The notes under the pieces were generated by a model. That model saw only the letters and a program-made list of their open reading frames with translations. It ran no database searches and had not been told where the DNA came from. DNA of 64,000 bases, from assembly GCA_964016885.1 (NCBI GenBank), contig OZ024745.1, positions 123,070,001 to 123,134,000 on the forward strand. Reading direction: 5' to 3'. Shown piece by piece: positions 1 to 56,646 of the stretch (position 1 is the first letter of the stretch; every line of letters starts with the position of its first letter). Position numbers and translations under genes: made by a program. The DNA is from Eledone cirrhosa (Eukaryota).

Positions 1-589
1 AAAAAGTAACAATTATAAGAACATGCCTACTCTTGCGATGTGAAACTTGCCTTCATTCATATGTAGAACTATGTAGAGTCAGATTAATAAAATCAATGGT
101 TTTTCTACTTGTATAGAAGAGATAATATATTAAGTAGACAAGCCTTTGTTCATATCTGCTGCATTTCTTTTTAAAGAACATGAATAATGATGAAGTGAAG
201 ATACTAAATATCCCCAAGAAAATGCTTTATGAATAATGTCTATTTTTTTTTTTAATAGCACATCATAAAATCTCAGGAAGTGTTTTTTTATAGCCAGAAA
301 AAATATTCTTTACCTAATTTTCCATACTAATCTCTCTTAGATTATCTTTTCTTAAAAACATCGAAAAGATAGAATACCAACTTTTGTAGCTTTTCTTGTG
401 TTTGTATTTTTATTTTTTGCTTTTTCCTTTTGATTTTAGTTGTTCTAGTTAAATCTATAGGTCTTTCACTACCCTCATGACAAAATTCATTGATTTAATC
501 GTATATGTACTGTTCTGTTATATTAAATAGAACTTGTTTCAATGAAACACTATCATCTGTGCATCATGAAACCCACTTTCTAATTATGA

Positions 590-3920: not shown

Positions 3921-4052
3921 TAGGAAAAGAGTCAGGACGGACCCCGACAGCTGAGCTCCGGCCGTTTCGACAGCTAGATCTGAACTACCCTAAGTATCAA
4001 GTACTCTGGTGCGTTATGGTCCACCTGGTTCCTTACCACACTTCCTTCGTTA
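3921..4052 (+). mobile_element. Penelope-like terminal fragment (family P1) with inverted 5' part, in (TA)n
   Basis: Ends TTACCACACTTCCTTCGTTA(TA)n. Homologous to 25455-25597, 36066-36268, 48855-48983 and 49321-49463. Confidence 0.6.
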
Positions 4053-4056
4053 TATA

Positions 4057-4377
4057 TGTGGTGGTGGTGGTGGTGGTGGGGATAATGTTGATGATGAGGA
4101 TGATGATGATAGTAATGATGATTGTCATTGAGTTGTTGCTGGTGGTGATGATGATGATAATGCTGATGATGATGATAATGACAACGATGATGATGATGAT
4201 GATGAGGATAAAAGAGGTGGTGATGATGATGATGATAAAAGAAGTGGCAGTGATGATGATGATGATGATGATGAGGATAAAAGAGGTGGTGATGATGATG
4301 ATGATGATGATGATGGTGAAATTGGTGATAGTGATGATGATGATGATGATGATGATGACGATGATGATGATGATGAC

Positions 4378-24829: not shown

Positions 24830-25597
24830 ATTGAAATTCTTACTTCATCGCTTCGCCAAGGGGGATAGAAGAAACACAAAAATGGTATTTCCAGTTTTAA
24901 TAATTTTGTATTTTCCTTACAATATTCTTATCACTTCCTTCCACTCCCTCTCCTCTTCCTTTTCCTTTTTCCTCTTTTGCCTACCCCGAGGCAGCCCATC
25001 GGGCTATCTTTTGTAGCCTTAGTACCTCCACCCCAGTAAATAACAGCTGCTTTAGACTCTAGAGATTTGTTCATTACTTTTTACTATTTAATTTTATTAT
25101 TTTTACTTTTTTTATTTATTATCTTTAATCTCAATTTATTAACCTTTTAATTCTATTATGTCCCACTCTCAATTTCCTCGAGAATCCTTTTTCGCCTGCT
25201 TCCTAACTAGCCTAATTTCACACATACTCCTTAGAATTTGCTGTATAGAATTCACTTTCAAAGCTTGACCGGCTCCACCCACTCCCTCATTCTTCTACCA
25301 ACAAGTTCAGCCACCCCCACCTCCCACCCACTGCCATGATAGATTTAATTGTGTTTACAAGAAATTTTGACCAATCTTTTTGACAACCACAATCTTCCCA
25401 TATAAGGAATTACCTCTTGAAAAGTTCAGCTATTTATTTCCACGCTCAAAATTCTAATTTAGTCCAGAAATAGCTGTCGAAACGACCTGACTCTACCTTT
25501 GGAGTTAACCATTTTCCTATTACCCACTCTACTACCCTAAGTATTGAGTACTCTGGAGCATTATGGTCCACCTGGGTCCTTACCACACCTTCGTTAT
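24830..25597 (+). mobile_element. Longer Penelope-like 3' region (family P1)
   Basis: Pyrimidine-rich UTR, then GTCCAGAAATAGCTGTCGAAACG and the P1 terminus TTACCACACCTTCGTTA. Confidence 0.5.
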
Positions 25598-25683
25598 AAA
25601 TATACATATATATGTATATATATATATATAATTATATATGTATATGTATATATATGTACATGTATATATGTATATGTACATAT

Positions 25684-35979: not shown

Positions 35980-36065
<86 letters not shown>

Positions 36066-36068
<3 letters not shown>

Positions 36069-36265
36069 CGAAGGAAATGTGGTAAGGAGCCAGATGGAAC
36101 ATAACGCACCAAAGTACTCAATACTTAGGGTAGTAGAGTGGGTAACAGGAACAAGTATGACCCCGATGGCAGAGCTCAAGCCGTTTCGACGGCTAATTCT
36201 GGACTTTGGAGTCCAGAATTAGCCGTCGAAACGGCTTGAGCTCTGCCGTCGGGGTCATACTTGTT

Positions 36266-37544: not shown

Positions 37545-37894
37545 ATCATCATCATTTTTCATCATTTCATTTTACGTCCCGCTTTTTCCCTGCTTGCAAG
37601 GGTGGGACGGGAACTGATTCTGGCTTGATTTCTACAGCTGGATGCCCTTCCTAACACCAACCTCATTTACAGTGAGTGCTGGGTGCTTTTTTGCCGTGGC
37701 GCCGCCACGACCACTTTGCAGTGGAATGATAGGGACCCAAGTCCCTATCATCTCATTTCTACAGCTGAGTAAACTGGAGCAATGTGAAATAAAGTGTCTT
37801 GCTCAAGGAAACAACACATCACCCAGTCTGAGAATTGAACTCACAACCTTTCGATTGCAAGCCCAATGCTCTAACCACTAAGCCATGTGCCTCC
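37545..37894 (-). mobile_element. Full-length SINE family A
   Basis: Matches 3481-3822. Confidence 0.88.
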
Positions 37895-46865: not shown

Positions 46866-47253
46866 ATATATATATATACCCAAGTCAATGGGAAAGATTA
46901 TATTAGTGTGTATGACATTATTGTCCATATTTATATGGATCCATTCTGTAAGCAAATTTCCTTTCCCTGAATACCAACGCAACACATGCTGCTACATCTC
47001 ATATAAAGCACACACCAAACACACCTTTTGTAACACTTGTACGCATATAAGTTTCCTGTGTTCTCTTCTTAATTGAAAATATATGAAAGTCAATGTAATC
47101 ATTGGTCTCTGAAGCTGTCAAACAACCTGAAATGTTTGAAGGTTGCTGGTGTTTCTATTGGTGTATAGTTATCAGGGGTATATAAATATATAAATATATA
47201 AATATTTAAATATATAAATGCACACAGATATACAAACATATATAGATAGATAC

Positions 47254-47286
<33 letters not shown>

Positions 47287-47547
47287 TATATATATATAGA
47301 TACATACATATATATATATCTATATATATATATTTCGTTTCTGAATTTGTTTAGCAAGATTCTTTATCTGAAATCGTGTGTTGAAACCGATATTGTTATA
47401 CTTTGGGAGGGTCATGTTGCCAATAAGAAACACACGCACCAGTTGCTTTCACTTCAATTTATTATATATTTATAAATTTACAAATTTATAAATTTATAAA
47501 TTTCTGGTTGGTTGGTTGGTTCCACAACCAGATAGTTGTTTATATAT

Positions 47548-47592
47548 AGTCATAGTCCTTTCGTCACACACTCTATGACCTCTTCAGTAACT
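47548..47592 (-). ncRNA. Minimal hammerhead ribozyme motif (family H)
   Basis: AGTTA-CTGAAGA-G-GTCATA-GAGTG-TGTGAC-GAAA-GGAC-TA|TGACT. Confidence 0.7.
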
Positions 47593-47661
47593 GGGGATTC
47601 CTTTCTTTGTTTCTGTGCCTCCCCTTTCTCTGTCCTACGCCATTTTGTTTCTCAAATCCCC

Positions 47662-47706
47662 AGCCACTGAAGAGGTCACAGAGTGTGTGACGAAAGGACT
47701 ATGACT
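47662..47706 (+). ncRNA. Minimal hammerhead ribozyme motif (family H)
   Basis: AGCCA-CTGAAGA-G-GTCACA-GAGTG-TGTGAC-GAAA-GGAC-TA|TGACT. Confidence 0.68.
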
Positions 47707-47860
47707 ATATATAAACAACTATCTGGTTGTGAAACCAACCAACCAACCAGAAATTTATAAATTTATAAATTTGTAAATTTATAAATATATAATAAATTGA
47801 AGTGAAAGCAACTGGTGCGTGTGTTTCTTATTGGCAACATGACCCTCCCAAAGTATAACA

Positions 47861-47893
<33 letters not shown>

Positions 47894-47932
47894 GATACAT
47901 ATATATATCTATATATATATATATATAGATAC

Positions 47933-47971
<39 letters not shown>

Positions 47972-48011
47972 ATATTAAATAAATGGAAGCTATATTTAAA
48001 AAGAAAATATT

Positions 48012-48076
48012 TATATTATTATATATATTTCAAGGGTAACCAAGACAACATTGGTACGCTTTCATCAGATAAAATA
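48012..48076 (-). ncRNA. Minimal type-I hammerhead ribozyme
   Basis: TATTTTAT-CTGATGA-AAGCGTACCAA...TTGGTTACCCTT-GAAA-TATATA-TA|ATAATATA. Confidence 0.78.
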
Positions 48077-48446
48077 CAAAGTTTGTTTTATAAATAGAGA
48101 CATACCCATAAAAAATCATACCTTATTGGTTGGAAATTGGCTGGATAGTGGAAATATATTAGGGATTATTGAAACTTATATGTGAATATGCAAATTTATG
48201 TACTTATATATATATATATATATTGAGTGAGAGAGAGAGAGAAGGAATGTGAGAGGGGGGTGAGCAAAAGAAGTGGAAGTAGGAGACAGGCTAGAGGTAA
48301 CACTACACATATATATGAAACAATAAATCTGTGTATATCTACACATTACTTTGATATTTTCAGAGACAGCAAGAAATCACTGTTTTGGGAGGTTTCTTTG
48401 CTCTTCTATGTAGAAGTCCAACCCTCTCTGTACTTATATATACACA

Positions 48447-48761
48447 TATTGGCCTTGCAATCAAAAGGTTGTGAGTTCAATTCTCAGACCGCGTGATGTG
48501 TTGTTTCCTTGAGCAAGACACTTTATTTCACATTGCTCCAGTTTACTCAGCTGTAGAAATGAGATGATAGGGACTGGGGTCCATATCATTCCACTGTAAA
48601 GTGGTCGTGGAAGTGTGACGGCAAAAGAGCACCCAGCACTCACTGTAAATGAGGTTGGTGTTAGGAAGGGCATCCAGCTGTAGAAATCAAGCCAGAATCA
48701 GTTTCCATCTCACCCTTGCAAGCAGGGAAAAAGCGGACGTAAAATGAAATGATGATGATGA
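48447..48761 (+). mobile_element. SINE family A
   Basis: Matches other A copies. Confidence 0.85.
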
Positions 48762-48801
48762 TATATAAACATGTTTATATTTGGATGTCTGTTTACAACA
48801 G

Positions 48802-48848
<47 letters not shown>

Positions 48849-48854
48849 CTGACA

Positions 48855-49181
48855 AAGTGTGGTAAGGAACCAGGTGGACCATAGCGCACCAGAGTACTCG
48901 ATACCTAGAGTAGTAGAGTGGGAAATAGGAAAAGTGTCAGAACACAAATGGCTGAGCTCCGGCCGTTTCTGGACTAGATTCCTATATATATATTTATACA
49001 CACACACACACATATATCATCATCATCATCATCATCCATCTTCCATGCTAGCATGGGTAGGACGAGCTATCCCGTTGTAAGGAATCAGGTCAGGGGACCA
49101 AGATTTACTCACACAAAACTGATTTGGGCTACATATATATATACACACACATATATATATATATATATGTGTGTGTGTATA

Positions 49182-49255
<74 letters not shown>

Positions 49256-49463
49256 ACCCTTGCAAGCAGGGAAAAGCAGACGTAAAGTGATGATGATTAT
49301 ATATATATATATATATATATAAGAACCAGTAAGACCCCGACAGCTGAGCTCAAGCCGTTTCGACGGGGTCTTACTGGTTCCTATTACCCACTCTACTACC
49401 CCAAGTATTGAGTACTTTGGTGCGTTATGGTCCACCTGGTTCCTTACCACATTTCCTTCGTTA
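48855..49463. mobile_element. Cluster of Penelope-like P1 termini (48855-48983 minus; 49321-49463 plus with 16-bp fold-back)
   Basis: Shared ACTCTACT..C.AAGTAT.GAGTACT.TGGTGCG.TATGGTCCACCTGGTTCCTTACCAC. Confidence 0.6.
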
Positions 49464-50237
49464 TATATATATATATATTTATATATATATGCTGCTATTT
49501 CTAGCATATTGAGAAACTACATAGAGGTATAGTCTTCATCCTCATTGATGTCATTCTAGCTTGCAGTGTTTTATATATTGATACATATATATATAAGAGA
49601 ATAAATGAGATTAGAGATAGAATCATATACAGATACATACCTAAGCAGATTAACTCCCTATCAATATTGGTTATTGACTATCTTATATATAGTCAAATAG
49701 ATAAAAAATGACAGGAAAAAACATTGAACCTTGCTATAAACTATTGTAGTTTCTGTAGAGGGCTGGAGTGTGAGATGTCCCCGTTGAAGTGTAGCGAAAA
49801 AGAGAGGGGGGACAGGGGCAAGAAGGGGGGGATATATATATATATATATATATATAGTAATAATTGTTTCTACGTTAGACACAAGGCCAGCAATTACCCA
49901 GTGTATTACTGGTTATAGTAATAATAAATGTGAAGACTAACCCATGCTAGCATAGAAGATGGACGTTAAACGATGATGATGATGATGATATATTTGTAAA
50001 TATATATATTTGTATATATATATATATATTTGTATATATATATATACATATGTATATATATATATACATATATATACATATACATATGTATATATATACA
50101 TATATATATACATGCATATATATGTACACACATATATACATTCATGTATATATACATATATATATATACATGTATATATATACATGTATATATATATACA
50201 TGTATGTATATATATATATATATACATGTATATATAT

Positions 50238-50478
50238 AATCTTCAGGTTCATATTCCGTGGTGACAGTCAAGTTTGCAATTTTCAACTGTTGAAAATTGC
50301 AAACTTGACTGTCACCACAGAATATGAACCTGAAGATTGCAAAAGCATGAAAGTACTTGTTCAATTAACACTTAACAGTTAATATTCTACCATACTATTT
50401 CATTCTAATACCATTATAAATTTTAAAGGATTGTAAATAAAACGAGTAAATCAGACAAAGTCGGAATTCCTTTTATTA
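50238..50478 (+). mobile_element. Fold-back element (50-bp arms 50238-50287/50289-50338) with hammerhead
   Basis: Near-perfect palindrome flanked by (TA)n. Confidence 0.7.
50325..50363 (+). ncRNA. Very compact (39-nt) hammerhead motif with palindromic GTAC stem III
   Basis: TGAAC-CTGAAGA-TTGC-AAAA-GCAT-GAAA-GTAC-TT|GTTCA. Confidence 0.78.
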
Positions 50479-50570
50479 ATATATATATATATATATATAT
50501 ATATCGTTTCTGAATTTGTTTAGCAAGATTCTTTATCTGAAAATGTGTGAAAACGAGAAAAGAATCCCCA

Positions 50571-50613
50571 GTCACTGAAGAGGTCACAGAATGTGTGACG
50601 AAAGAACTATGAC
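50571..50613 (+). ncRNA. Minimal hammerhead motif (family H, within rearranged element 50504-50763)
   Basis: GTCA-CTGAAGA-G-GTCACA-GAATG-TGTGAC-GAAA-GAAC-TA|TGAC. Confidence 0.7.
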
Positions 50614-50803
50614 AATATATGAACAACCATCCGGTTGTGGAAGCAACCAACCGGAAATTTATAAATTCTTAAATTTATAAATTTAACTTATAATAAATTG
50701 GAGTGAAAGCAACTGGTGCGTGTGTTTCTTATTGGCAACATGACCCTCCCAAAGCATAACAATATATATATATATATATATATATAGTAATAGTAATAAT
50801 AAT

Positions 50804-50856
<53 letters not shown>

Positions 50857-51257
50857 TATACATGTATCATCACCATCATCATCATCGATTAATGTCTATC
50901 TTCCATGCTAGCATGGGTTGGACGGGTTTATCCCATTTAGAGGGTTGGGTGACCCTGTCTCACTCATATAGGAGTGTTTCTGGCTGGTTGCCCTTCCTAA
51001 CGTTTAATTAGGGAAAGTTAGTTGATTTAGAATCAGCCAACATATAACAGATGTCAAGCACTCAACAGTTTATGTTTATCTGGAGTTTTGTTATAATAAT
51101 AAACAAATAAGACAGTTACTTTAGTCCATCTCTATTTATTTTATTATACGTATTTCAAACATATATGGCTTATGTATAACATAAGTCAAAACATATATAT
51201 TATATATATATGATATATATATAATATATAATATATATAATATATAATATATATATC

Positions 51258-51536
51258 TAAGTCTAAAGTCTGTCTGAAGCCAGAAGGCTCATCAGGTTGG
51301 TGTTTATCCCGGTTTCATGGCATGAAGCGACTGAGAGTACAAGACTCCCCCCTGGACAGGACGCCAGTCCATCACAGGTTTAAACCTCCAGCTATTACTG
51401 GTACTCATTTTCAGCTGAGTATACTGGAGCAACGTGAAATGAAGTGTTTTGCTCAAGAACACAACACACAACCCAGGAATCGAACCCACAACATTATGGT
51501 CGTAAGTCCAACACCCTTACCACTAGGCCACGTACC
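51258..51536 (-). mobile_element. tRNA-derived CORE-like SINE of another subfamily (GATGGACTGGCGTCC...GAAACCGGGATAA body)
   Basis: A box TGGCCTAGTGG, B box GGTTCGATTCC, CORE-like block; diverged relative at 12510-12720. Confidence 0.75.
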
Positions 51537-52122
51537 TTTTTTTTTAGTGTGTGTGTGTCTGTGTCTTTTTGTGTGTCTGTGTGTGTTTGTGTGTGACAGC
51601 TCACACCTATGCAGGTTTAGCTGGCCTCTTCCAAGGTATATCTCGTTGGAGGTGTCTTGGGTAATTTAATGATAGGGACCCCAGTCCCTATCATCTCATT
51701 TCTACAGCTGAGTAAACTGGAGCAACGTGAAATAAAGTGTCTTGCTCAAGGAAACAACACATCACCTGGTCTGAAAATTGAACTCACAACCTTTCGATTG
51801 CAAGCCCAATGCTCTAACCACTAAGCCATGCGCCTTCACTGTTTGTATGCGTGTCTATGTGTGTCTGTTTGTGTGTGTCTGTGTGTGTATGTATGAGTGT
51901 GCCTGTGTGTATGTGAAGTGTTTGTCCCTCACCAATGTTATTACAGTGTAAACCCCAATGTGATAGATTTCAGAATGAAATGTTAGTAAATATGAAGAGA
52001 GAAAGGCTGTGTTGAAACAAGCACAGCTCTGTTAAGTAATGACTTAAATAAATCACATCTACATACATAGCATATAACTAGTATATATATATATACTAGT
52101 TATATATACATACACACATCTT

Positions 52123-52164
<42 letters not shown>

Positions 52165-52214
52165 AATGTGTATATATATATATACATACATATATATACA
52201 CACACACGCAAGTT

Positions 52215-52279
<65 letters not shown>

Positions 52280-52282
<3 letters not shown>

Positions 52283-52400
52283 TAACCATAGTAAGTAAGG
52301 TATTCAATACATAGTAGAGTATATACCAAATTTAATATAGAATATAGAAATGGCTCCTACAGAACTAGAACTGTTTCATTCGAATGAAACAGTTCTAGTT
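52280..52400 (-). mobile_element. Penelope-like family P2 terminus ending in a perfect 38-bp palindrome
   Basis: Palindrome 52363-52400; contains hammerhead 3' half GAAA-CAG...CTG-TA. Confidence 0.6.
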
Positions 52401-52848
52401 TAATCTCTTCTTCATTCACCTTATATAATTTAATCTCTTCTTCATTCACCTTATATCCTTAATATTTAAATTTTAATAATACATAATAAATTCCTTTTCG
52501 CACATTTTATTAAACCCTTCAATATATAAACCTTAAATAAATACTATTCTTAATTCCTTTTTCTTTAATCATAAACATCACCATTCATAAACCTCATTAA
52601 CTTTTAATTTCAACATTTTTTTAAATTATGTATTATCTTACAACGGTTTTTTTTAATTTTCTCTGTGAGACAGTGTTTCTCAGTATTAAAGGCTATCTCT
52701 CCCTCTCTCTCACTCATTTCTCCTCCTCTCTCATCCTTCCTTCTTATACTCCTCCCCCGTCATCCTTTATTTTCTTTCTTCCTCTTCCGCACCTTCCCCC
52801 CCCCCCTTCTCCTTTTTTTTCCCAATCTCATATATCCATCTTACTTTA

Positions 52849-52919
52849 TTTTTCATATGATGAGAATGCAAATATCATCCCATGATGATATTTGCTTTTG
52901 AAATGCGCATAATAAAATA
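52849..52919 (+). ncRNA. Hammerhead motif, core mutated (C3>A)
   Basis: TTTTCAT-ATGATGA-GAATGCAAATATCATC-CCAT-GATGATATTTGCTTTT-GAAA-TGCGCA-TA|ATAAAATA. Confidence 0.72.
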
Positions 52920-53084
52920 CATGGAACTCTTTTAACCATCTTTTGATCTTATATTATATATATACATATATATATATATATACACATATATATATGTATA
53001 TATATATATATAAAATCAAGGTTTAGCAAATAGAGAAAAAGTTTTAAAATAAATTTTTAAAAGTTCACTGTACTTACTATTTGT

Positions 53085-53169
53085 GCCTTTATTGCACGAT
53101 TTCAAACCCCAAAATAAATAGATAATCCAAACGGATTTCCATTGAGAAAGGGAATTTTCGTCAGACGGC
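53085..53169 (-). ncRNA. Hammerhead motif with long stem II
   Basis: GCCGT-CTGACGA-AAATTCC...GGGGTTT-GAAA-TCGTGCAA-TA|AAGGC. Confidence 0.62.
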
Positions 53170-53570
53170 TTTTCTCAGTCGGAGAATGAAATTCTCGAGT
53201 TCAAATCACAAACTGGCGCCATACAAAACTGTTCCCGAATGAGAGTGATATATCTATATATATCTATATATATATATATATATATATTGATTATATATAT
53301 ATTGACTATATATATTACTTGACTAATAGTTTCTATCATTTGATTGGTACTTTATTCTATCATTTGATTGGTACTTTATTCTATCATTTGATTGGTACTT
53401 TATTCTATCAACCATTGGAAGGTTAAAAGACAAATTTGTCCTCACTGAGATTAGAACTGAAATTTGATCTGGCAGTGCTGCAATATTCTATCAGGTTTTG
53501 GTTGATGGAATGGGATCAATTATATAGATTCCAGTATTGGAACATATTCTATTAACCCATATTCTATTAA

Positions 53571-54562
53571 CCCTTTAGTATTTACATTACTCTATATTTA
53601 CTATTGTATTTTCATGATAAAGACTTTACCTCACATAACATTTACATTACTCTATATTTACTATTGTATTTTCATGATAAAGACTTTACCTCACATAACA
53701 TTTACATTACTCTATATTTACTATTGTATTTTCATGGTAAAGACTTTACCTCACATAACATTTACATTACTCTATATATACTATTGTATTTTCATGGTAA
53801 AGACTTTACCTCACATAACATTTACATTACTCTATATTTACTATTGTTTTTTCATGGTAAAAACTTTACCTCACATAACATTTACATTACTCTATATTTA
53901 CTATTGTATTTTCATGGTAAAGACTTTACCTCAAATAACATTTACATTACTCTATATTTACTATTGTATTTTCATGATAAAGACTTTACCTCACATAACA
54001 TTTACATTACTCTATATTACTATTGTATTTTCATGGTAAAGACTTTACCTCACATAACATTTACATTACTCAATATTGTATTTTCATGGTAAAGATTTTA
54101 CCTCACATAACATTTACATTACTCTATATTTACTATTGTATTTTCATGGTAAAGACTTTACCTCACATAACATTTACATTACTCAATATTTACTATTGTA
54201 TTTTCATGGTAAAGACTTTACCTCACATAACATTTACATTACTCAATATTTACTATTGTATTTTCATGGTAAAGACTTTACCTCACATAGCATTTACATT
54301 ACTCTATATTTACTATTGTATTTTCATGGTAAAGACTTTACCTCACATAGCATTTACATTAGTCTATATATACTATTGTATTTTCATGGTAAAGACTTTA
54401 CCTCACAAATTATTTCACATAATATCGAATCTATGAGATTTTTATGTTGTTTATTTTGAGAACAATACTTTAAAATCAGTATGAGTGGCCAGTTAAGTTC
54501 AGTGTGAACAGAAAGAGTTCAGAGAATTCTGGTCGGATATGGCTGGTTTAAATGCTAAAGGG
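53571..54562. mobile_element. Family-M TTAA MITE with an internal 60-bp unit amplified ~14x
   Basis: Intact TTAA-CCCTTTAG...CTAAAGGG-TTAA ends; array 53581-54410. Confidence 0.9.
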
Positions 54563-54599
54563 TTAAAGCAGAATTTCAACTCAAATAATTAAAAATAAT

Positions 54600-55153
54600 A
54601 GTTGGTTCTAATATTAAATTCTAATTTAGGCATAAGGGCTATCAAATATTTTGTAGGGGAGAAGAGAAAGTCAATTAAATTGACCCCTGTATTTCACTGA
54701 TTCTTTATTTTATCAACCTTGGAATGATGAGAGGTATAGGTAACGTGGATAGGATTTGAACTCACAATGTAAAGAGCAATGACTAAACACTGCAAGACAT
54801 TTTGTCTCATGCTCAAATGATTCTAACAATTCACCACCCAATAAAAATCATAATAATAATTATTTCTTATATAGGCACAAGGCCAGAAATCTTTTGGGGG
54901 GAAGGGAAAGTCGATTAAATCGACCCCAGTACATTACTGGTGCTTATTTTATCGACCCCGTAAGGATGAAAGGCAAAGTTGACCTCGGGATTTGAACTCA
55001 GATCATTACTGGTACTTTATTTTATCTACCGCGTAAGGATGAAAGGCAAAGTTGACCTTGGCGGGATTTTAACTCAGACCGCAAGGGGCCATAACTCTAT
55101 GCTACAAAGCATGGTGTCGTCAAACGCTCTACCAATTCTACCAATCCACTGCC
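54600..55153 (-). mobile_element. Family-B SINE cluster
   Basis: Matches other B copies. Confidence 0.8.
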
Positions 55154-55379
55154 TATAATGATGATGATGATGATGATAATGATACAAATAATGATAATAA
55201 CAACAATAACATCAAGTGAAATTGAAATCTACATCAAATAAATAACTGCAAGTAAAATCTTATACATCTGAAGTTTATATGACACACCTACCAAATTATA
55301 CAAACGAGAGATTTATACTCATTCTTATAATAGGCTATTCATTTATATCTGACTGAATGAGTGCAAGTGTGTGTGTATG

Positions 55380-55423
<44 letters not shown>

Positions 55424-55516
55424 TATGCATATATATATACTTGTAGATATGTATATGTATATATATGTATATGTATATATACATACACATATATATATAT
55501 ATATATATATAGATGT

Positions 55517-55577
<61 letters not shown>

Positions 55578-55706
55578 GAAGTTCTATTTAAATTGTTGGG
55601 ATACAACAAGCAAATATTTTTATAACTGATATAAAGCACTCAACAAATTATTAAAGTAAAAATACGATATATTAACAAATGGAAACTATATTTATAAAAC
55701 CATATT

Positions 55707-55771
55707 TATTTCATTATACATATTTCAAGGACACCAAGTTAAATTATGGTGTGCTTTCATCAGATAAAATA
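55707..55771 (-). ncRNA. Minimal type-I hammerhead ribozyme (intact core)
   Basis: TATTTTAT-CTGATGA-AAGCACACCA...TGGTGTCCTT-GAAA-TATGTA-TA|ATGAAATA. Confidence 0.8.
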
Positions 55772-56014
55772 TAATATAGATCAGTTTTATAAATAAATAT
55801 TGACATACCCTTAAAAGAATGCGACCATTTCTGTTGGAAGCTCCCGGATATTTTATTATATGTATAATAAAATATATGGAACTCTTATAACCATCTTTAT
55901 TTCATCTTTATATATACTCCAGTTCTACCAACTGTTGAGTGCTACTTATCTGATATATGCATAGTTTTATTGCTCTACCATATTACTCACCTTCTATATA
56001 TATATATGTGTGTG

Positions 56015-56096
<82 letters not shown>

Positions 56097-56100
<4 letters not shown>

Positions 56101-56643
56101 ATACTTTGGGAGGGTCATGTTGCCAATAAGAAACACACGCACCAGTTGTTTTCACTTCAATTTATTATAAATTAAATTTATAAATTTAGGAATTTATAAA
56201 TTTCCGGTTGGTTGGTTGGTTCCACAACCAGACGATTGTTCATATATTGTCAAAGTTCTTTCGTCACACATTCTGTGACCTCTTCAGTGACTGGGATTCT
56301 TTTCTTTGTTTTTGTGCCTCTCCTTTGTTCTGTCCTACGCCATCTTGTTTTTGTGTGTGTTGACAGAATAAAGGAGAGGCACAAAAACAAAGAAAAGAAT
56401 CCCCAGTCACTGAAGAGGTCACAGAATGTGTGACGAAAGAACTTTGACAATATATGAACAATCGTCTGGTTGTGAACCAACCAACCAACCAACCGGAAAT
56501 TTATAAATTTAATTTATAATAAATTGAAGTGAAAGTAACTGGTGCGTGTGTTTCTTATTGGCAACATGACCCTCCCAAAGCATAACAATATCGGTTTCAA
56601 CACACGTTTTCAGATAAAGAATCTTGCTAAACAAATCCAGAAA

Positions 56644-56646
<3 letters not shown>
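56097..56646. mobile_element. Family-H fold-back element (~230-bp arms) with hammerheads at 56249-56291 (-) and 56406-56448 (+)
   Basis: Inverted arms flanked by (TA)n; GTCA-CTGAAGA-G-GTCACA...TGTGAC-GAAA-GAAC-TT|TGAC in each arm. Confidence 0.8.

Follow-up and report, generated by a model that had tools for sequence, protein, structure and literature searches.

Three loci with a common palindromic plan lie in the window, a 64,000-nt stretch of Eledone cirrhosa DNA (contig OZ024745.1; all positions are those of the stretch). A search of the window for the core CTGAAGAGGTCACAGARTGTGTGACGAAAG returned five sites with up to three mismatches (0.00 expected by chance), and a search for the terminus GCTAAACAAATYCAGAAACGA returned three, at 47335(-), 50504(-) and 56626(+) (0.01 expected). 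Two of the loci are head-to-head inverted duplications (47335-47864 and 56092-56646) and one is a lopsided copy (50504-50765); all three have an adjacent inverted, 5′-truncated copy. An earlier note on this DNA had described palindromic hammerhead elements at three loci, and the five cores, three termini and inverted arms bear this out. The same note had regarded 50504-50763 as rearranged: the locus instead has the same architecture as the others, with a tail-bearing arm so extremely truncated that only its last 46 nt remain.

Table 1. Features of the three insertions (47k, 50k and 56k); R positions refer to the 3′ end of the element.
Feature	Position	Strand	Details
Left flank of 47k insertion	47236-47334	.	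(TA)n-rich microsatellite; basis: sequence
47k tail-bearing arm	47335-47650	-	R3705-4000 of the element 3′ end; 55-nt tail = 47335-47389
Minimal hammerhead	47549-47591	-	core 47558-47587; predicted cleavage 47553/47552; one G.U pair each in helix I and helix II
Filler at 47k head-to-head junction	47651-47654	.	4 nt
47k tail-less arm	47655-47864	+	R3757-3945; ends ...AACAATAT, then (TA)n
Minimal hammerhead	47663-47705	+	core 47667-47696; predicted cleavage 47701/47702; C.A mismatch in helix I
Right flank of 47k insertion	47865-47970	.	(TA)n-rich
50k tail-bearing arm	50504-50549	-	R3955-4000; (TA)n before
Filler at 50k junction	50550-50555		6 nt
50k tail-less arm	50556-50765	+	R3750-3945, then (TA)n
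Minimal hammerhead	50571-50613	+	core 50575-50604; predicted cleavage 50609/50610
56k tail-less arm	56092-56360	-	R3695-3945; (TA)n before
Minimal hammerhead	56249-56291	-	core 56258-56287; predicted cleavage 56253/56252
56k tail-bearing arm	56362-56646	+	R3721-4000; tail 56592-56646; then (TA)n, then (GA)n
Minimal hammerhead	56406-56448	+	core 56410-56439; predicted cleavage 56444/56445

The two arms of a locus are unequal: one ends ...CAGAAACGA(AATAT), tail included, and its partner stops 55 nt earlier, at a second defined terminus, ...AACAATAT. Both ends of the insertion run into (TA)n, flanks in which a target site duplication would be masked. In the 47k insertion the stretches 47390-47599 and 47655-47864 (210 nt each) are 98% complementary and lie 55 nt apart; the apparent spacer is the continuation of the longer arm plus the 4-nt filler. 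The defined 3′ end, put by the earlier note at ∼200 nt beyond the predicted cleavage site, lies 202 nt from it (56444/56445 to 56646). The window copies are stumps of 256-531 nt without an ORF; the two hammerheads of one locus are on opposite strands, and no direct tandem of the unit occurs in the window.

The three loci are 5′-truncated insertions of a high-copy Penelope-like element (PLE) of ∼4 kb. Their arms align to the 3′ end of long element copies, the ORF of which carries YVDD, a CxxxxCxxC linker and VVYSIRC...IVYIGET. The linker reads CIDKKCITC, the CX2-5CxxC pattern that precedes GIY-YIG, a likeness at the level of motif. Uninterrupted frames of 1163-1274 codons are present in L100-L102, and the frame is broken in all nine of the near-full-length copies taken by DNA search. 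In an AF2 model of the ORF (pLDDT 85.8) residues 1-349 match the telomerase RTs of yeast, human and Tetrahymena (Z 10.3, 8.7 and 8.6), and residues 450-543 match the GIY-YIG catalytic domain of I-TevI (Z 9.1, rmsd 2.5, 84/92 residues); the same region matches T4 EndoII (Z 6.6) and the UvrC GIY-YIG domain (Z 6.4). A profile of 33 homologues matches solved RTs (E 4.6e-8), and five of the 33 match Pfam GIY-YIG at E ≤ 0.01. Pfam support for the ORF itself is weak, with scores below the cut-offs (RVT_1 21.3 bits against 29.6; GIY-YIG 22.4 against 22.6), and a Pfam search with the whole 1050-residue frame gave no match. The long copies encode a telomerase-like RT together with a C-terminal GIY-YIG nuclease in a single ORF: an autonomous PLE with the same terminus, as the earlier note had proposed to look for. 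Of 16 protein-anchored copies, 14 have the hammerhead on the strand of the nuclease region and ∼440-600 nt downstream of it.

The arms carry a minimal type-I hammerhead motif of the PLE kind, for which self-cleavage is a prediction from sequence. All five window copies have the boxes CUGANGA and GAAA and an H at position 17 (U at 56k, A at 47k and 50k), together with G10.1-C11.1 and helices of 6 bp (II) and 4 bp (I); G10.1-C11.1 is invariant in nine aligned rows. An extra G after CUGAAGA, already pointed out in the earlier note, is found in 5/5 copies; it is the bulge already known from minimal PLE hammerheads, where a base stands unpaired between positions 9 and 10.1 (PMC4209133). The unpaired base is G in this family (family H) and U in a second one (family 2). 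The second family retains the hammerhead through compensatory changes in two pairs of helix II and one of helix I, and since all covariation comes from this one other family each pair represents a single evolutionary event. Helix II is 100% paired, and overall identity between the pLTRs of the two families is only 52%. A set of 85 distinct rows has 94.9% of its cells paired, compared with 17-46% when the partners are slid. G15.2-C16.2 is palindromic; loop 3 (AA or GA) is not, so that the dimeric helix III expected of PLE hammerheads would carry A.A or tandem G.A mismatches. The Rfam hammerhead models gave no match among the rows listed at gathering score and none among those at E ≤ 10 on a 131-nt stretch, and over 10 kb the Rfam hammerhead families are absent among the best 150 of 167 rows (E ≤ 10). 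The folds are not more stable than those of shuffled sequence (z -1.5 to +0.2). Published minimal PLE hammerheads cleave poorly in vitro (PMC4209133) or only with protein present (PMC11167929).

The survey of the family comprised 50 evaluable loci, and 36 partner arms were scored. An adjacent inverted arm ending at R3945 is present at 29/50 loci, shorter inverted pieces at 8/50 and none at 13/50. Every complete inverted arm has (TA)n outside it. The tail occurs on 0/36 partner arms, and exactly one tail is present in 38/38 composites with both ends visible. The arms are separated by -13 to +44 nt, in most cases by -5 to +6. Junction positions vary among the 36 loci with an inverted piece; they also differ among six close relatives of the 47k copy, members of one young subfamily. 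Such variation between loci, found even inside one young subfamily, means that the palindrome arises when the element inserts and that it is no MITE; the earlier view that the inversion forms at insertion rather than being inherited is thus upheld.

A DNA transposon of the foldback or MITE type, bounded by terminal inverted repeats and a TA target duplication, would have the palindromic structure and the TA flanks seen here, but has next to no probability. The centre varies between loci, the two ends are unequal (the 55-nt tail is on one side only), and the copies form a 5′-truncation series at the long end of which stands a 4 kb unit whose ORF encodes RT and nuclease; a MITE with one fixed centre and a TIR/TA TSD was rejected on the first two of these grounds. 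That the palindromes are assembly artefacts appears just as negligible: assemblies are known to have difficulty with the tandem and inverted structures of PLEs (PMC8557442), but this architecture is repeated, with an individual junction each time, at 29 of the 50 loci sampled and on many contigs. Words from the 47k centre were found in three runs, and no contig spans the centre.

Similarity between arms is 0.965 within a locus versus 0.946 between loci, a value as high being reached in 0/10000 permutations, and the arms of L102 are 99.4% identical over 820 nt. The variants GGACTA and GAACTT had been taken to be shared by the arms of a locus and private to it: shared they are, but not private. 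GAACTT is the majority variant of the family, GGACTA is also found in L097, and the 47k right arm has at least eight other copies at 98-100% identity. The variants thus mark subfamilies and were brought in from the source; local conversion between arms, the alternative once offered, is not needed.

Insertions of the element pile up: L044 and L045 are two copies 842 nt apart, and at L079 a family-2 end abuts a family-H end. Given such neighbours, and the targeting of (TA)n, a palindrome could in principle be two independent insertions that met by chance in the same TA microsatellite. This is very improbable, as no (TA)n is left between the arms, every one of the 38 composites has a single tail, arms of the same locus are more alike than chance, and inverted arms ending at R3945 are too frequent for coincidence. 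Direct arrangements do occur in the family as partial tandems of the pLTR-forming kind: at L077, L078, L079, L081 and L083 an upstream 5′-truncated copy runs to R4000, where the next unit follows directly. The join reads ...ACGA followed by AATATCGTAAGCC, and the distance to the next block is a constant 447-449 nt in 4/5 loci.

Could the ribozyme itself define the unit? A non-LTR retrozyme, that is, a non-autonomous unit cut from a transcript by hammerheads to give a circular RNA, would likewise be short, non-coding, present in high copy number and equipped with a type-I hammerhead, and a preprint derives vertebrate retrozymes from PLE pLTRs (10.64898/2026.07.22.740005). We nevertheless hold this to be highly unlikely. 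The window has no tandem direct arrangement and the hammerheads of a locus point in opposite directions; 5′ ends fall at the predicted cleavage site in 0/50 direct and 0/36 inverted arms; and the termini correspond to RT start sites, not ribozyme sites. Across the family 5′ ends have a general hotspot at R3690-3730.

The insertions are very probably 5′-truncated PLE insertions in (TA)n in which the two head-to-head copies of the 3′ end likely derive from one event, with reverse transcription primed from both cut strands. The element nuclease would cut both strands of a TA repeat, and from each 3′-OH cDNA synthesis would start on element RNA at one of two AAUAUCG sites, so that an insertion ends up with a single tail. 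Both cDNAs would then halt at variable points, and the joining of their 3′ ends would involve an overlap or filler of a few bases. Any action of the hammerhead would be on element transcripts that are longer or multimeric; a transcript of the palindrome would bury it in a long hairpin. The argument for two-strand priming draws on genomic scars and on one in vitro study of a lizard PLE.

The inverted arm of the same element could also come from fold-back self-priming of a single cDNA or of an antisense template, and not from two-strand priming. Self-priming has been proposed for rotifer PLEs on the strength of palindromic junctions (PMC3846280), and some loci here would suit it: L003, L015, L020, L030 and L045 have only a short internal inverted piece, which turns within 1-17 nt of the start of the direct arm and lacks (TA)n on that side, the two arms of several full composites turn at a near-equal coordinate (L018 3710/3708, L055 3710/3703), and arms within a locus are more alike than random pairs. 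In all, at ∼8 loci the junctions are symmetric or the inverted pieces short and internal, for which fold-back self-priming is an equally good or better explanation. For the family as a whole we consider it unlikely. The majority of composites are asymmetric (the arms start 20 to >3000 nt apart); a complete inverted arm invariably ends at the one internal site R3945, next to (TA)n, which a self-copying cDNA should not do; and the symmetric cases cluster at the hotspot, where two independent cDNAs would stop too. Moreover, the protein of PAc, a green anole Poseidon element, cuts and extends both target strands in vitro (Frangieh et al. 2024, PMC11167929).

Returning to priming from both strands, both alternative termini end in AAUAUCG. 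It is possible, and we put it forward tentatively as less likely than not to hold, that the repeated motif marks two cDNA start sites, at which AUAU pairs with the cut (TA)n, each site being used once per insertion. If so, one dimeric RNP would copy one RNA from both cut strands simultaneously, genomic scars would be a direct readout of the PLE integration step, and the process would be a homology-guided variant of the non-homologous internal initiation of the lizard element.

The layout belongs to a known repertoire. Hallmarks of PLEs in PMC8557442 and PMC3846280 include an adjacent inverted 5′-truncated copy, a one-sided tail, pLTRs from partial tandems and (TA)n insertion; these papers, PMC11167929 and PMC4209133 further describe a pair of RT start sites, the cutting of both strands and their extension, and a (TA)n bias. 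As the head-to-head layout has already been described for PLEs, the finding is real but ordinary. The present element resembles the EN+ PLEs described there (Penelope/Poseidon, Neptune, Nematis; PMC8557442, PMC3846280) in having an RT and C-terminal GIY-YIG in one ORF with an N-rich insert, partial-tandem pLTRs that contain the hammerhead, an inverted 5′-truncated copy, a one-sided tail and (TA)n or AT-rich targets. The visible CX2-5CxxC linker recalls Neptune and Nematis, by motif and not by phylogeny. It differs in its tail, 55 nt against a published 30-40 nt, and in that the window copies are ORF-less stumps. The hammerhead agrees with the minimal ones of metazoan PLEs, as described by Cervera and de la Pena 2014 (PMC4209133), in boxes, bulge and G10.1-C11.1, in its helix lengths (II long, 6 bp; I short, 4 bp; III 1-2 bp), and in the occurrence of opposite-strand pairs 100-700 bp apart; unlike those, it has a non-palindromic loop 3 and no match to Rfam models. 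The type-I hammerhead is shared with animal non-LTR retrozymes, which the 2026 preprint derives from PLE pLTRs. Retrozymes, however, are tandem direct repeats cut into circular RNAs, whereas the present loci have a single hammerhead on each strand and lack a tandem repeat. In LINE-1 twin priming, too, the second target strand primes a second cDNA, resulting in an inversion; there the segments are adjacent parts of the RNA, whereas the present arms are both copies of one 3′ region, begun at two fixed start sites.

The closest parallel in vitro is PAc (PMC11167929), with an AT-rich target and two neighbouring RT start sites that bound the tail. Its template is uncleaved RNA, which fits the absence here of 5′ ends at the predicted cleavage site. 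The PAc start sites are non-homologous to the cut DNA and are placed 111-118 nt into the ORF. In the present element AAUAU(CG) closes both termini and could pair with cut (TA)n, and the sites precede the first ATG of the long frame by 45-100 nt, unless the upstream ATG of L102 is used, in which case they fall inside the frame. The presence of AAUAUCG at both termini, with each terminus used once per insertion (38/38), is possibly a new detail.

The earlier note had described palindromic loci with a hammerhead in each arm, and these are real: cores, terminus and arms could all be located in the window at the three family H loci, here called 47k, 50k and 56k after their positions. The terminus, GCTAAACAAATYCAGAAACGA, occurs at three sites, (TA)n runs border all three loci, and the arms of the 47k locus are 210 nt each, 98% complementary and 55 nt apart. 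The 50k locus, previously read as a rearranged version, has the layout of the other two, except that one arm is shortened to 46 nt, when aligned to a reference element, or ruler (the reverse complement of L031, a locus fetched from elsewhere in the genome; R-numbers are positions on it). No pieces of an ORF of a Penelope-like element (PLE) were found in the window, which holds three stumps only. Assembled reads at 47504-47740 gave contigs of 56-89 nt only, none of which spans the centre of the 47k locus.

Features of family H in the window and on the reference element (R), with an example of a second family
Feature	Coordinates	Strand	Sequence or remark
Terminus	47335, 50504, 56626	-, -, +	GCTAAACAAATYCAGAAACGA; window motif search
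Hammerhead-like core	47558, 47667, 50575, 56258, 56410	-, +, +, -, +	window motif search
56k arm	56092-56360	-	
56k arm	56362-56646	+	
Hotspot of arm 5' ends	47630-47650 and 56336-56360		
47k, tailed arm	R3705-4000	-	filler 4 nt
47k, tail-less arm	R3757-3945	+	
50k, tailed arm	R3955-4000	-	filler 6 nt
50k, tail-less arm	R3750-3945	+	
56k, tailed arm	R3721-4000	+	filler 1 nt
56k, tail-less arm	R3695-3945	-	
Stop codon	R3558-3560		ruler
Hammerhead core	~R3769		ruler
Predicted cleavage site	~R3803/3804		ruler
Tail-less end	R3945		...AACAATAT
Tail end	R4000		...CAGAAACGA
Site 1			ACGAAAUAUCGU; read across tandem junction
Site 2			AACAAUAUCGG
Second-family example	L062:485-1000		

Other repeats also occur in the window. 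Just left of the 50k insertion lies a near-perfect 87-nt hairpin with a 42-bp stem (50244-50330), whose sub-threshold score on plant miRNA models is probably meaningless. A tandem array of a 60-nt unit (53580-54407; 13.9 copies, 95% matches) adjoins 3.3 copies of a 24-nt unit (53331-53410). Two inverted stretches of 143 nt with 95% complementarity, separated by 3 kb (48448-48590 and 51668-51810), together with a tRNA-like match (51771-51828) and a tRNA match (37824-37887), probably represent tRNA-derived SINE copies. Another dispersed repeat of ~120 nt (3984-4057, 25514-25613, 36049-36166, 48829-48931 and 49364-49478) also flanks the inverted arm of L031.

A search of the 3.0 Gb genome found the end piece in at least 1,901 candidate copies, with identities of 92-100% among 40 scored copies. 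Two fetched loci, L031 and L032, have more than 2 kb in common upstream of the terminus, and their open frame carries the motifs YVDD (reverse transcriptase), a CxxxxCxxC linker and VVYSIRC...IVYIGET. Further copies add 449 nt at the 5' side, giving a unit of ~4.0 kb in total; the classic partial tandem is present too, where a 5'-truncated copy upstream runs to R4000 and the next unit follows directly (...ACGA followed by AATATCGTAAGCC). Near-full-length copies taken by DNA search all have broken frames (9/9). A protein-anchored search gave 26,529 candidate ORF fragments in the genome, which include frames of 1163, 1167 and 1274 codons without interruption. An autonomous PLE with this terminus had been proposed as the element to seek, and the three long-frame loci examined (L100-L102) do have the same termini as the window copies.

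Pfam support for the ORF is weak: parts of the frame give sub-threshold RVT_1, the whole 1050-residue frame matched no Pfam family, and a TonB_2 match on part of the ORF was dismissed as spurious. A PDB sequence search with the single ORF found nothing beyond a low-complexity match to a nucleoporin. The structural comparisons are clear. In an AF2 model of a 543-residue frame (pLDDT 85.8), a wide VIA-align search matched residues 1-349 to telomerase catalytic subunits (Z 10.3, 8.7 and 8.6) and residues 450-543 to the GIY-YIG domain of I-TevI (Z 9.1, rmsd 2.5, 84/92 residues), with T4 EndoII and UvrC ranking lower among the matches of the nuclease region. A profile of 33 homologues also matches solved reverse transcriptases. 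Endonuclease-bearing PLEs are defined by a telomerase-like reverse transcriptase together with a GIY-YIG nuclease at the C terminus, and the modelled ORF structure is clearly of this kind. Among named proteins, a hypothetical one from Octopus vulgaris comes closest (65% identity). In L100 (1539-4688) the N-terminal part of the ORF carries a long asparagine/threonine-rich low-complexity insert (frame residues ~70-330), which recalls the N-rich inserts described for rotifer PLEs (PMC3846280). A short intron (ATGGCG/GTAGGA to CCCCAG/) and Helitron-type ends were considered and dropped.

Arms, tails and flanks were compared across 52 distinct loci, from two samples and the window copies, of which 50 were evaluable. 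An adjacent inverted arm ending at R3945 is present in 29/50 (28 from the main tabulation; L037, at 83.6% identity, from a separate one only), a further 8/50 have an inverted piece that is shorter or internally rearranged, and 13/50 have none. No partner arm enters the tail (0/36), the 55 nt that separate R3945 from R4000. With the addition of six ORF-anchored composites (L075, L078, L082, L100, L101 and L102) and of L103, L105 and L108, which are relatives of the 47k copy, exactly one tail was found in 38/38 composites with both ends visible, although 29 of the 38 were chosen by a tail-bearing anchor and so test only the absence of a tail in the partner. Runs of (TA)n lie beyond every complete inverted arm; some solo copies have them on the 3' side only. 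Both termini share the final heptamer AAUAUCG. One composite, L002, has an unrelated stretch of 300 nt between its arms (1174-1473, oriented), which may have been inserted later or captured as filler.

Arm 5' ends fall at scattered positions, in most cases not the same in the two arms, with junction gaps of -13 to +44 nt. At least eight further copies match the right arm of the 47k locus at 98-100% identity, and all six fetched relatives of this locus are unlike it: four have another junction and two are solo. A MITE, an alternative named beforehand, is ruled out by these differences among close relatives, as is an inherited palindrome; the inversion is made at insertion, and the earlier note was right that it is not inherited. 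Within a locus the two arms resemble each other more closely than do arms from different loci (0.965 vs 0.946, substitution-only identity, 18 loci), a value reached in 0 of 10000 permutations, and those of L102 are 99.4% identical over 820 nt, each being only 79-87% identical to the ruler. The variants taken to be private to single loci are not so: most copies have GAACTT, and GGACTA is found again in L097. They mark the source subfamily, which makes local conversion unnecessary.

The insertion scars are fitted best by two-strand priming at the AAUAUCG sites, a step that we infer: two cut target strands would each prime one cDNA, one cDNA would begin at each site, and the 3' ends of the two would then be joined. 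For eight short or symmetric cases there is a fair rival in fold-back self-priming, the model set out in PMC3846280. As to two-strand priming, the PAc protein, a predicted dimer, both cuts and extends each of the target strands, and its reverse transcription begins at two internal sites close together, which delimit the tail (PMC11167929).

The window contains five sites of the 30-base hammerhead-like core, against a chance expectation of none. Helix I (GUCA/UGAC, 4 bp) is followed by CUGAAGA and a bulged G, the extra G already remarked upon, then by helix II (GUCACA/UGUGAC, 6 bp, with a G10.1-C11.1 pair), GAAA, and a 3' part of G-(AA or GA)-C, U16.1 and H17. Loop 3 (AA or GA) is non-palindromic; like the Rfam and stability results that follow, this counts against the motif or leaves its status open. 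The distance of ~200 nt noted between predicted cleavage site and element end is 202 nt at 56k (from 56444/56445). Rfam scans of the window sequence listed no hammerhead family among their matches, so the motif is classed by its own features and the literature: PMC4209133 describes minimal PLE hammerheads in which helix II is long, helix I is short and a base lies between positions 9 and 10.1, all of which holds for the window motifs too, and reports opposite-strand motif pairs 100-700 bp apart. By fold computation the stability of the hammerhead folds is not out of the ordinary. In the window, a covariance model built from nine copies matches the five known sites and no others, and over 95 sources it matches 135 sites; 94.9% of cells are paired (85 distinct rows of the motif alignment), and changes inside family H mostly break the motif pairs, as expected of dead copies. 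The transcript of the 47k palindrome is predicted to fold as one long hairpin (-346 kcal/mol, z -46), which would bury both predicted hammerheads. A third hammerhead type, nearer canonical, was seen in L096 (~326-385, plus strand): CUGAUGA without the bulge, helix II of 5 bp, palindromic CUAG after GAAA and helix I of 7 bp; a further PLE or retrozyme family is its probable source.

A second PLE family was met by chance in five fetched loci (L025, L026, L062, L079 and L095). It is 52% identical to family H overall, and its layout is the same: AAGATGGCGTAG block, hammerhead, ...AACAATAT, tail and (TA)n. Its hammerhead, CUGACGA-U-GUUGCA...UGCAAC-GAAA, preserves the motif of family H, helix II having two compensatory pairs and helix I one. 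In L079 the tail-less ends of the two families abut, tail to tail.

Arm 5' ends are concentrated at R3690-3730 (19/50 direct and 12/36 inverted arms), directly after an (AC)n run and at the AAGATGGCGTAG block conserved in both families. This hotspot could be an RNA 5' end, a reverse transcriptase stop or a promoter. No TATA box was found ~30 nt before it; with only the TATA-like AATATAAAC ~60-70 nt upstream, a transcription start here is a guess. By comparison no arm starts within R3798-3810, around the predicted cleavage site (0/50 direct, 0/36 inverted), so cleaved RNA is not the usual template, in agreement with the in vitro result for lizard PAc (PMC11167929).

The main value of these findings lies in annotation: palindromes with hammerhead motifs resemble a designed two-ribozyme device but are in fact a routine retrotransposon scar, and should be masked as PLE fragments. 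The retrotransposon is very abundant, with at least 1,900 candidate end pieces and ~26,500 candidate ORF fragments in 3.0 Gb, and Penelope elements are among the abundant repeats of coleoid cephalopods (PMC8967140). Transcripts of the loci would, on folding predictions, form near-perfect hairpins of ~210 bp, possible substrates of small-RNA or editing pathways. Beyond annotation, the tabulated breakpoints are of modest use for the question of how PLEs integrate: they show the one-tail rule, the two AAUAUCG sites, a ribozyme site at which no 5' ends lie and the AAGATGGCGTAG hotspot.

In family H both start sites could pair with cut (TA)n, whereas those of PAc are reported as non-homologous to the target (PMC11167929); such pairing does not appear in the portions of the PLE literature consulted. 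The structural features themselves are all in print for PLEs: inverted 5'-truncated copies, a tail at one end only, complex insertions in tandem and inverted form and a bias to (TA)n in PMC8557442, and inverted pseudo-LTRs, a tail and N-rich inserts in PMC3846280. Both the pattern seen in family H and the kind of element that carries it are known.
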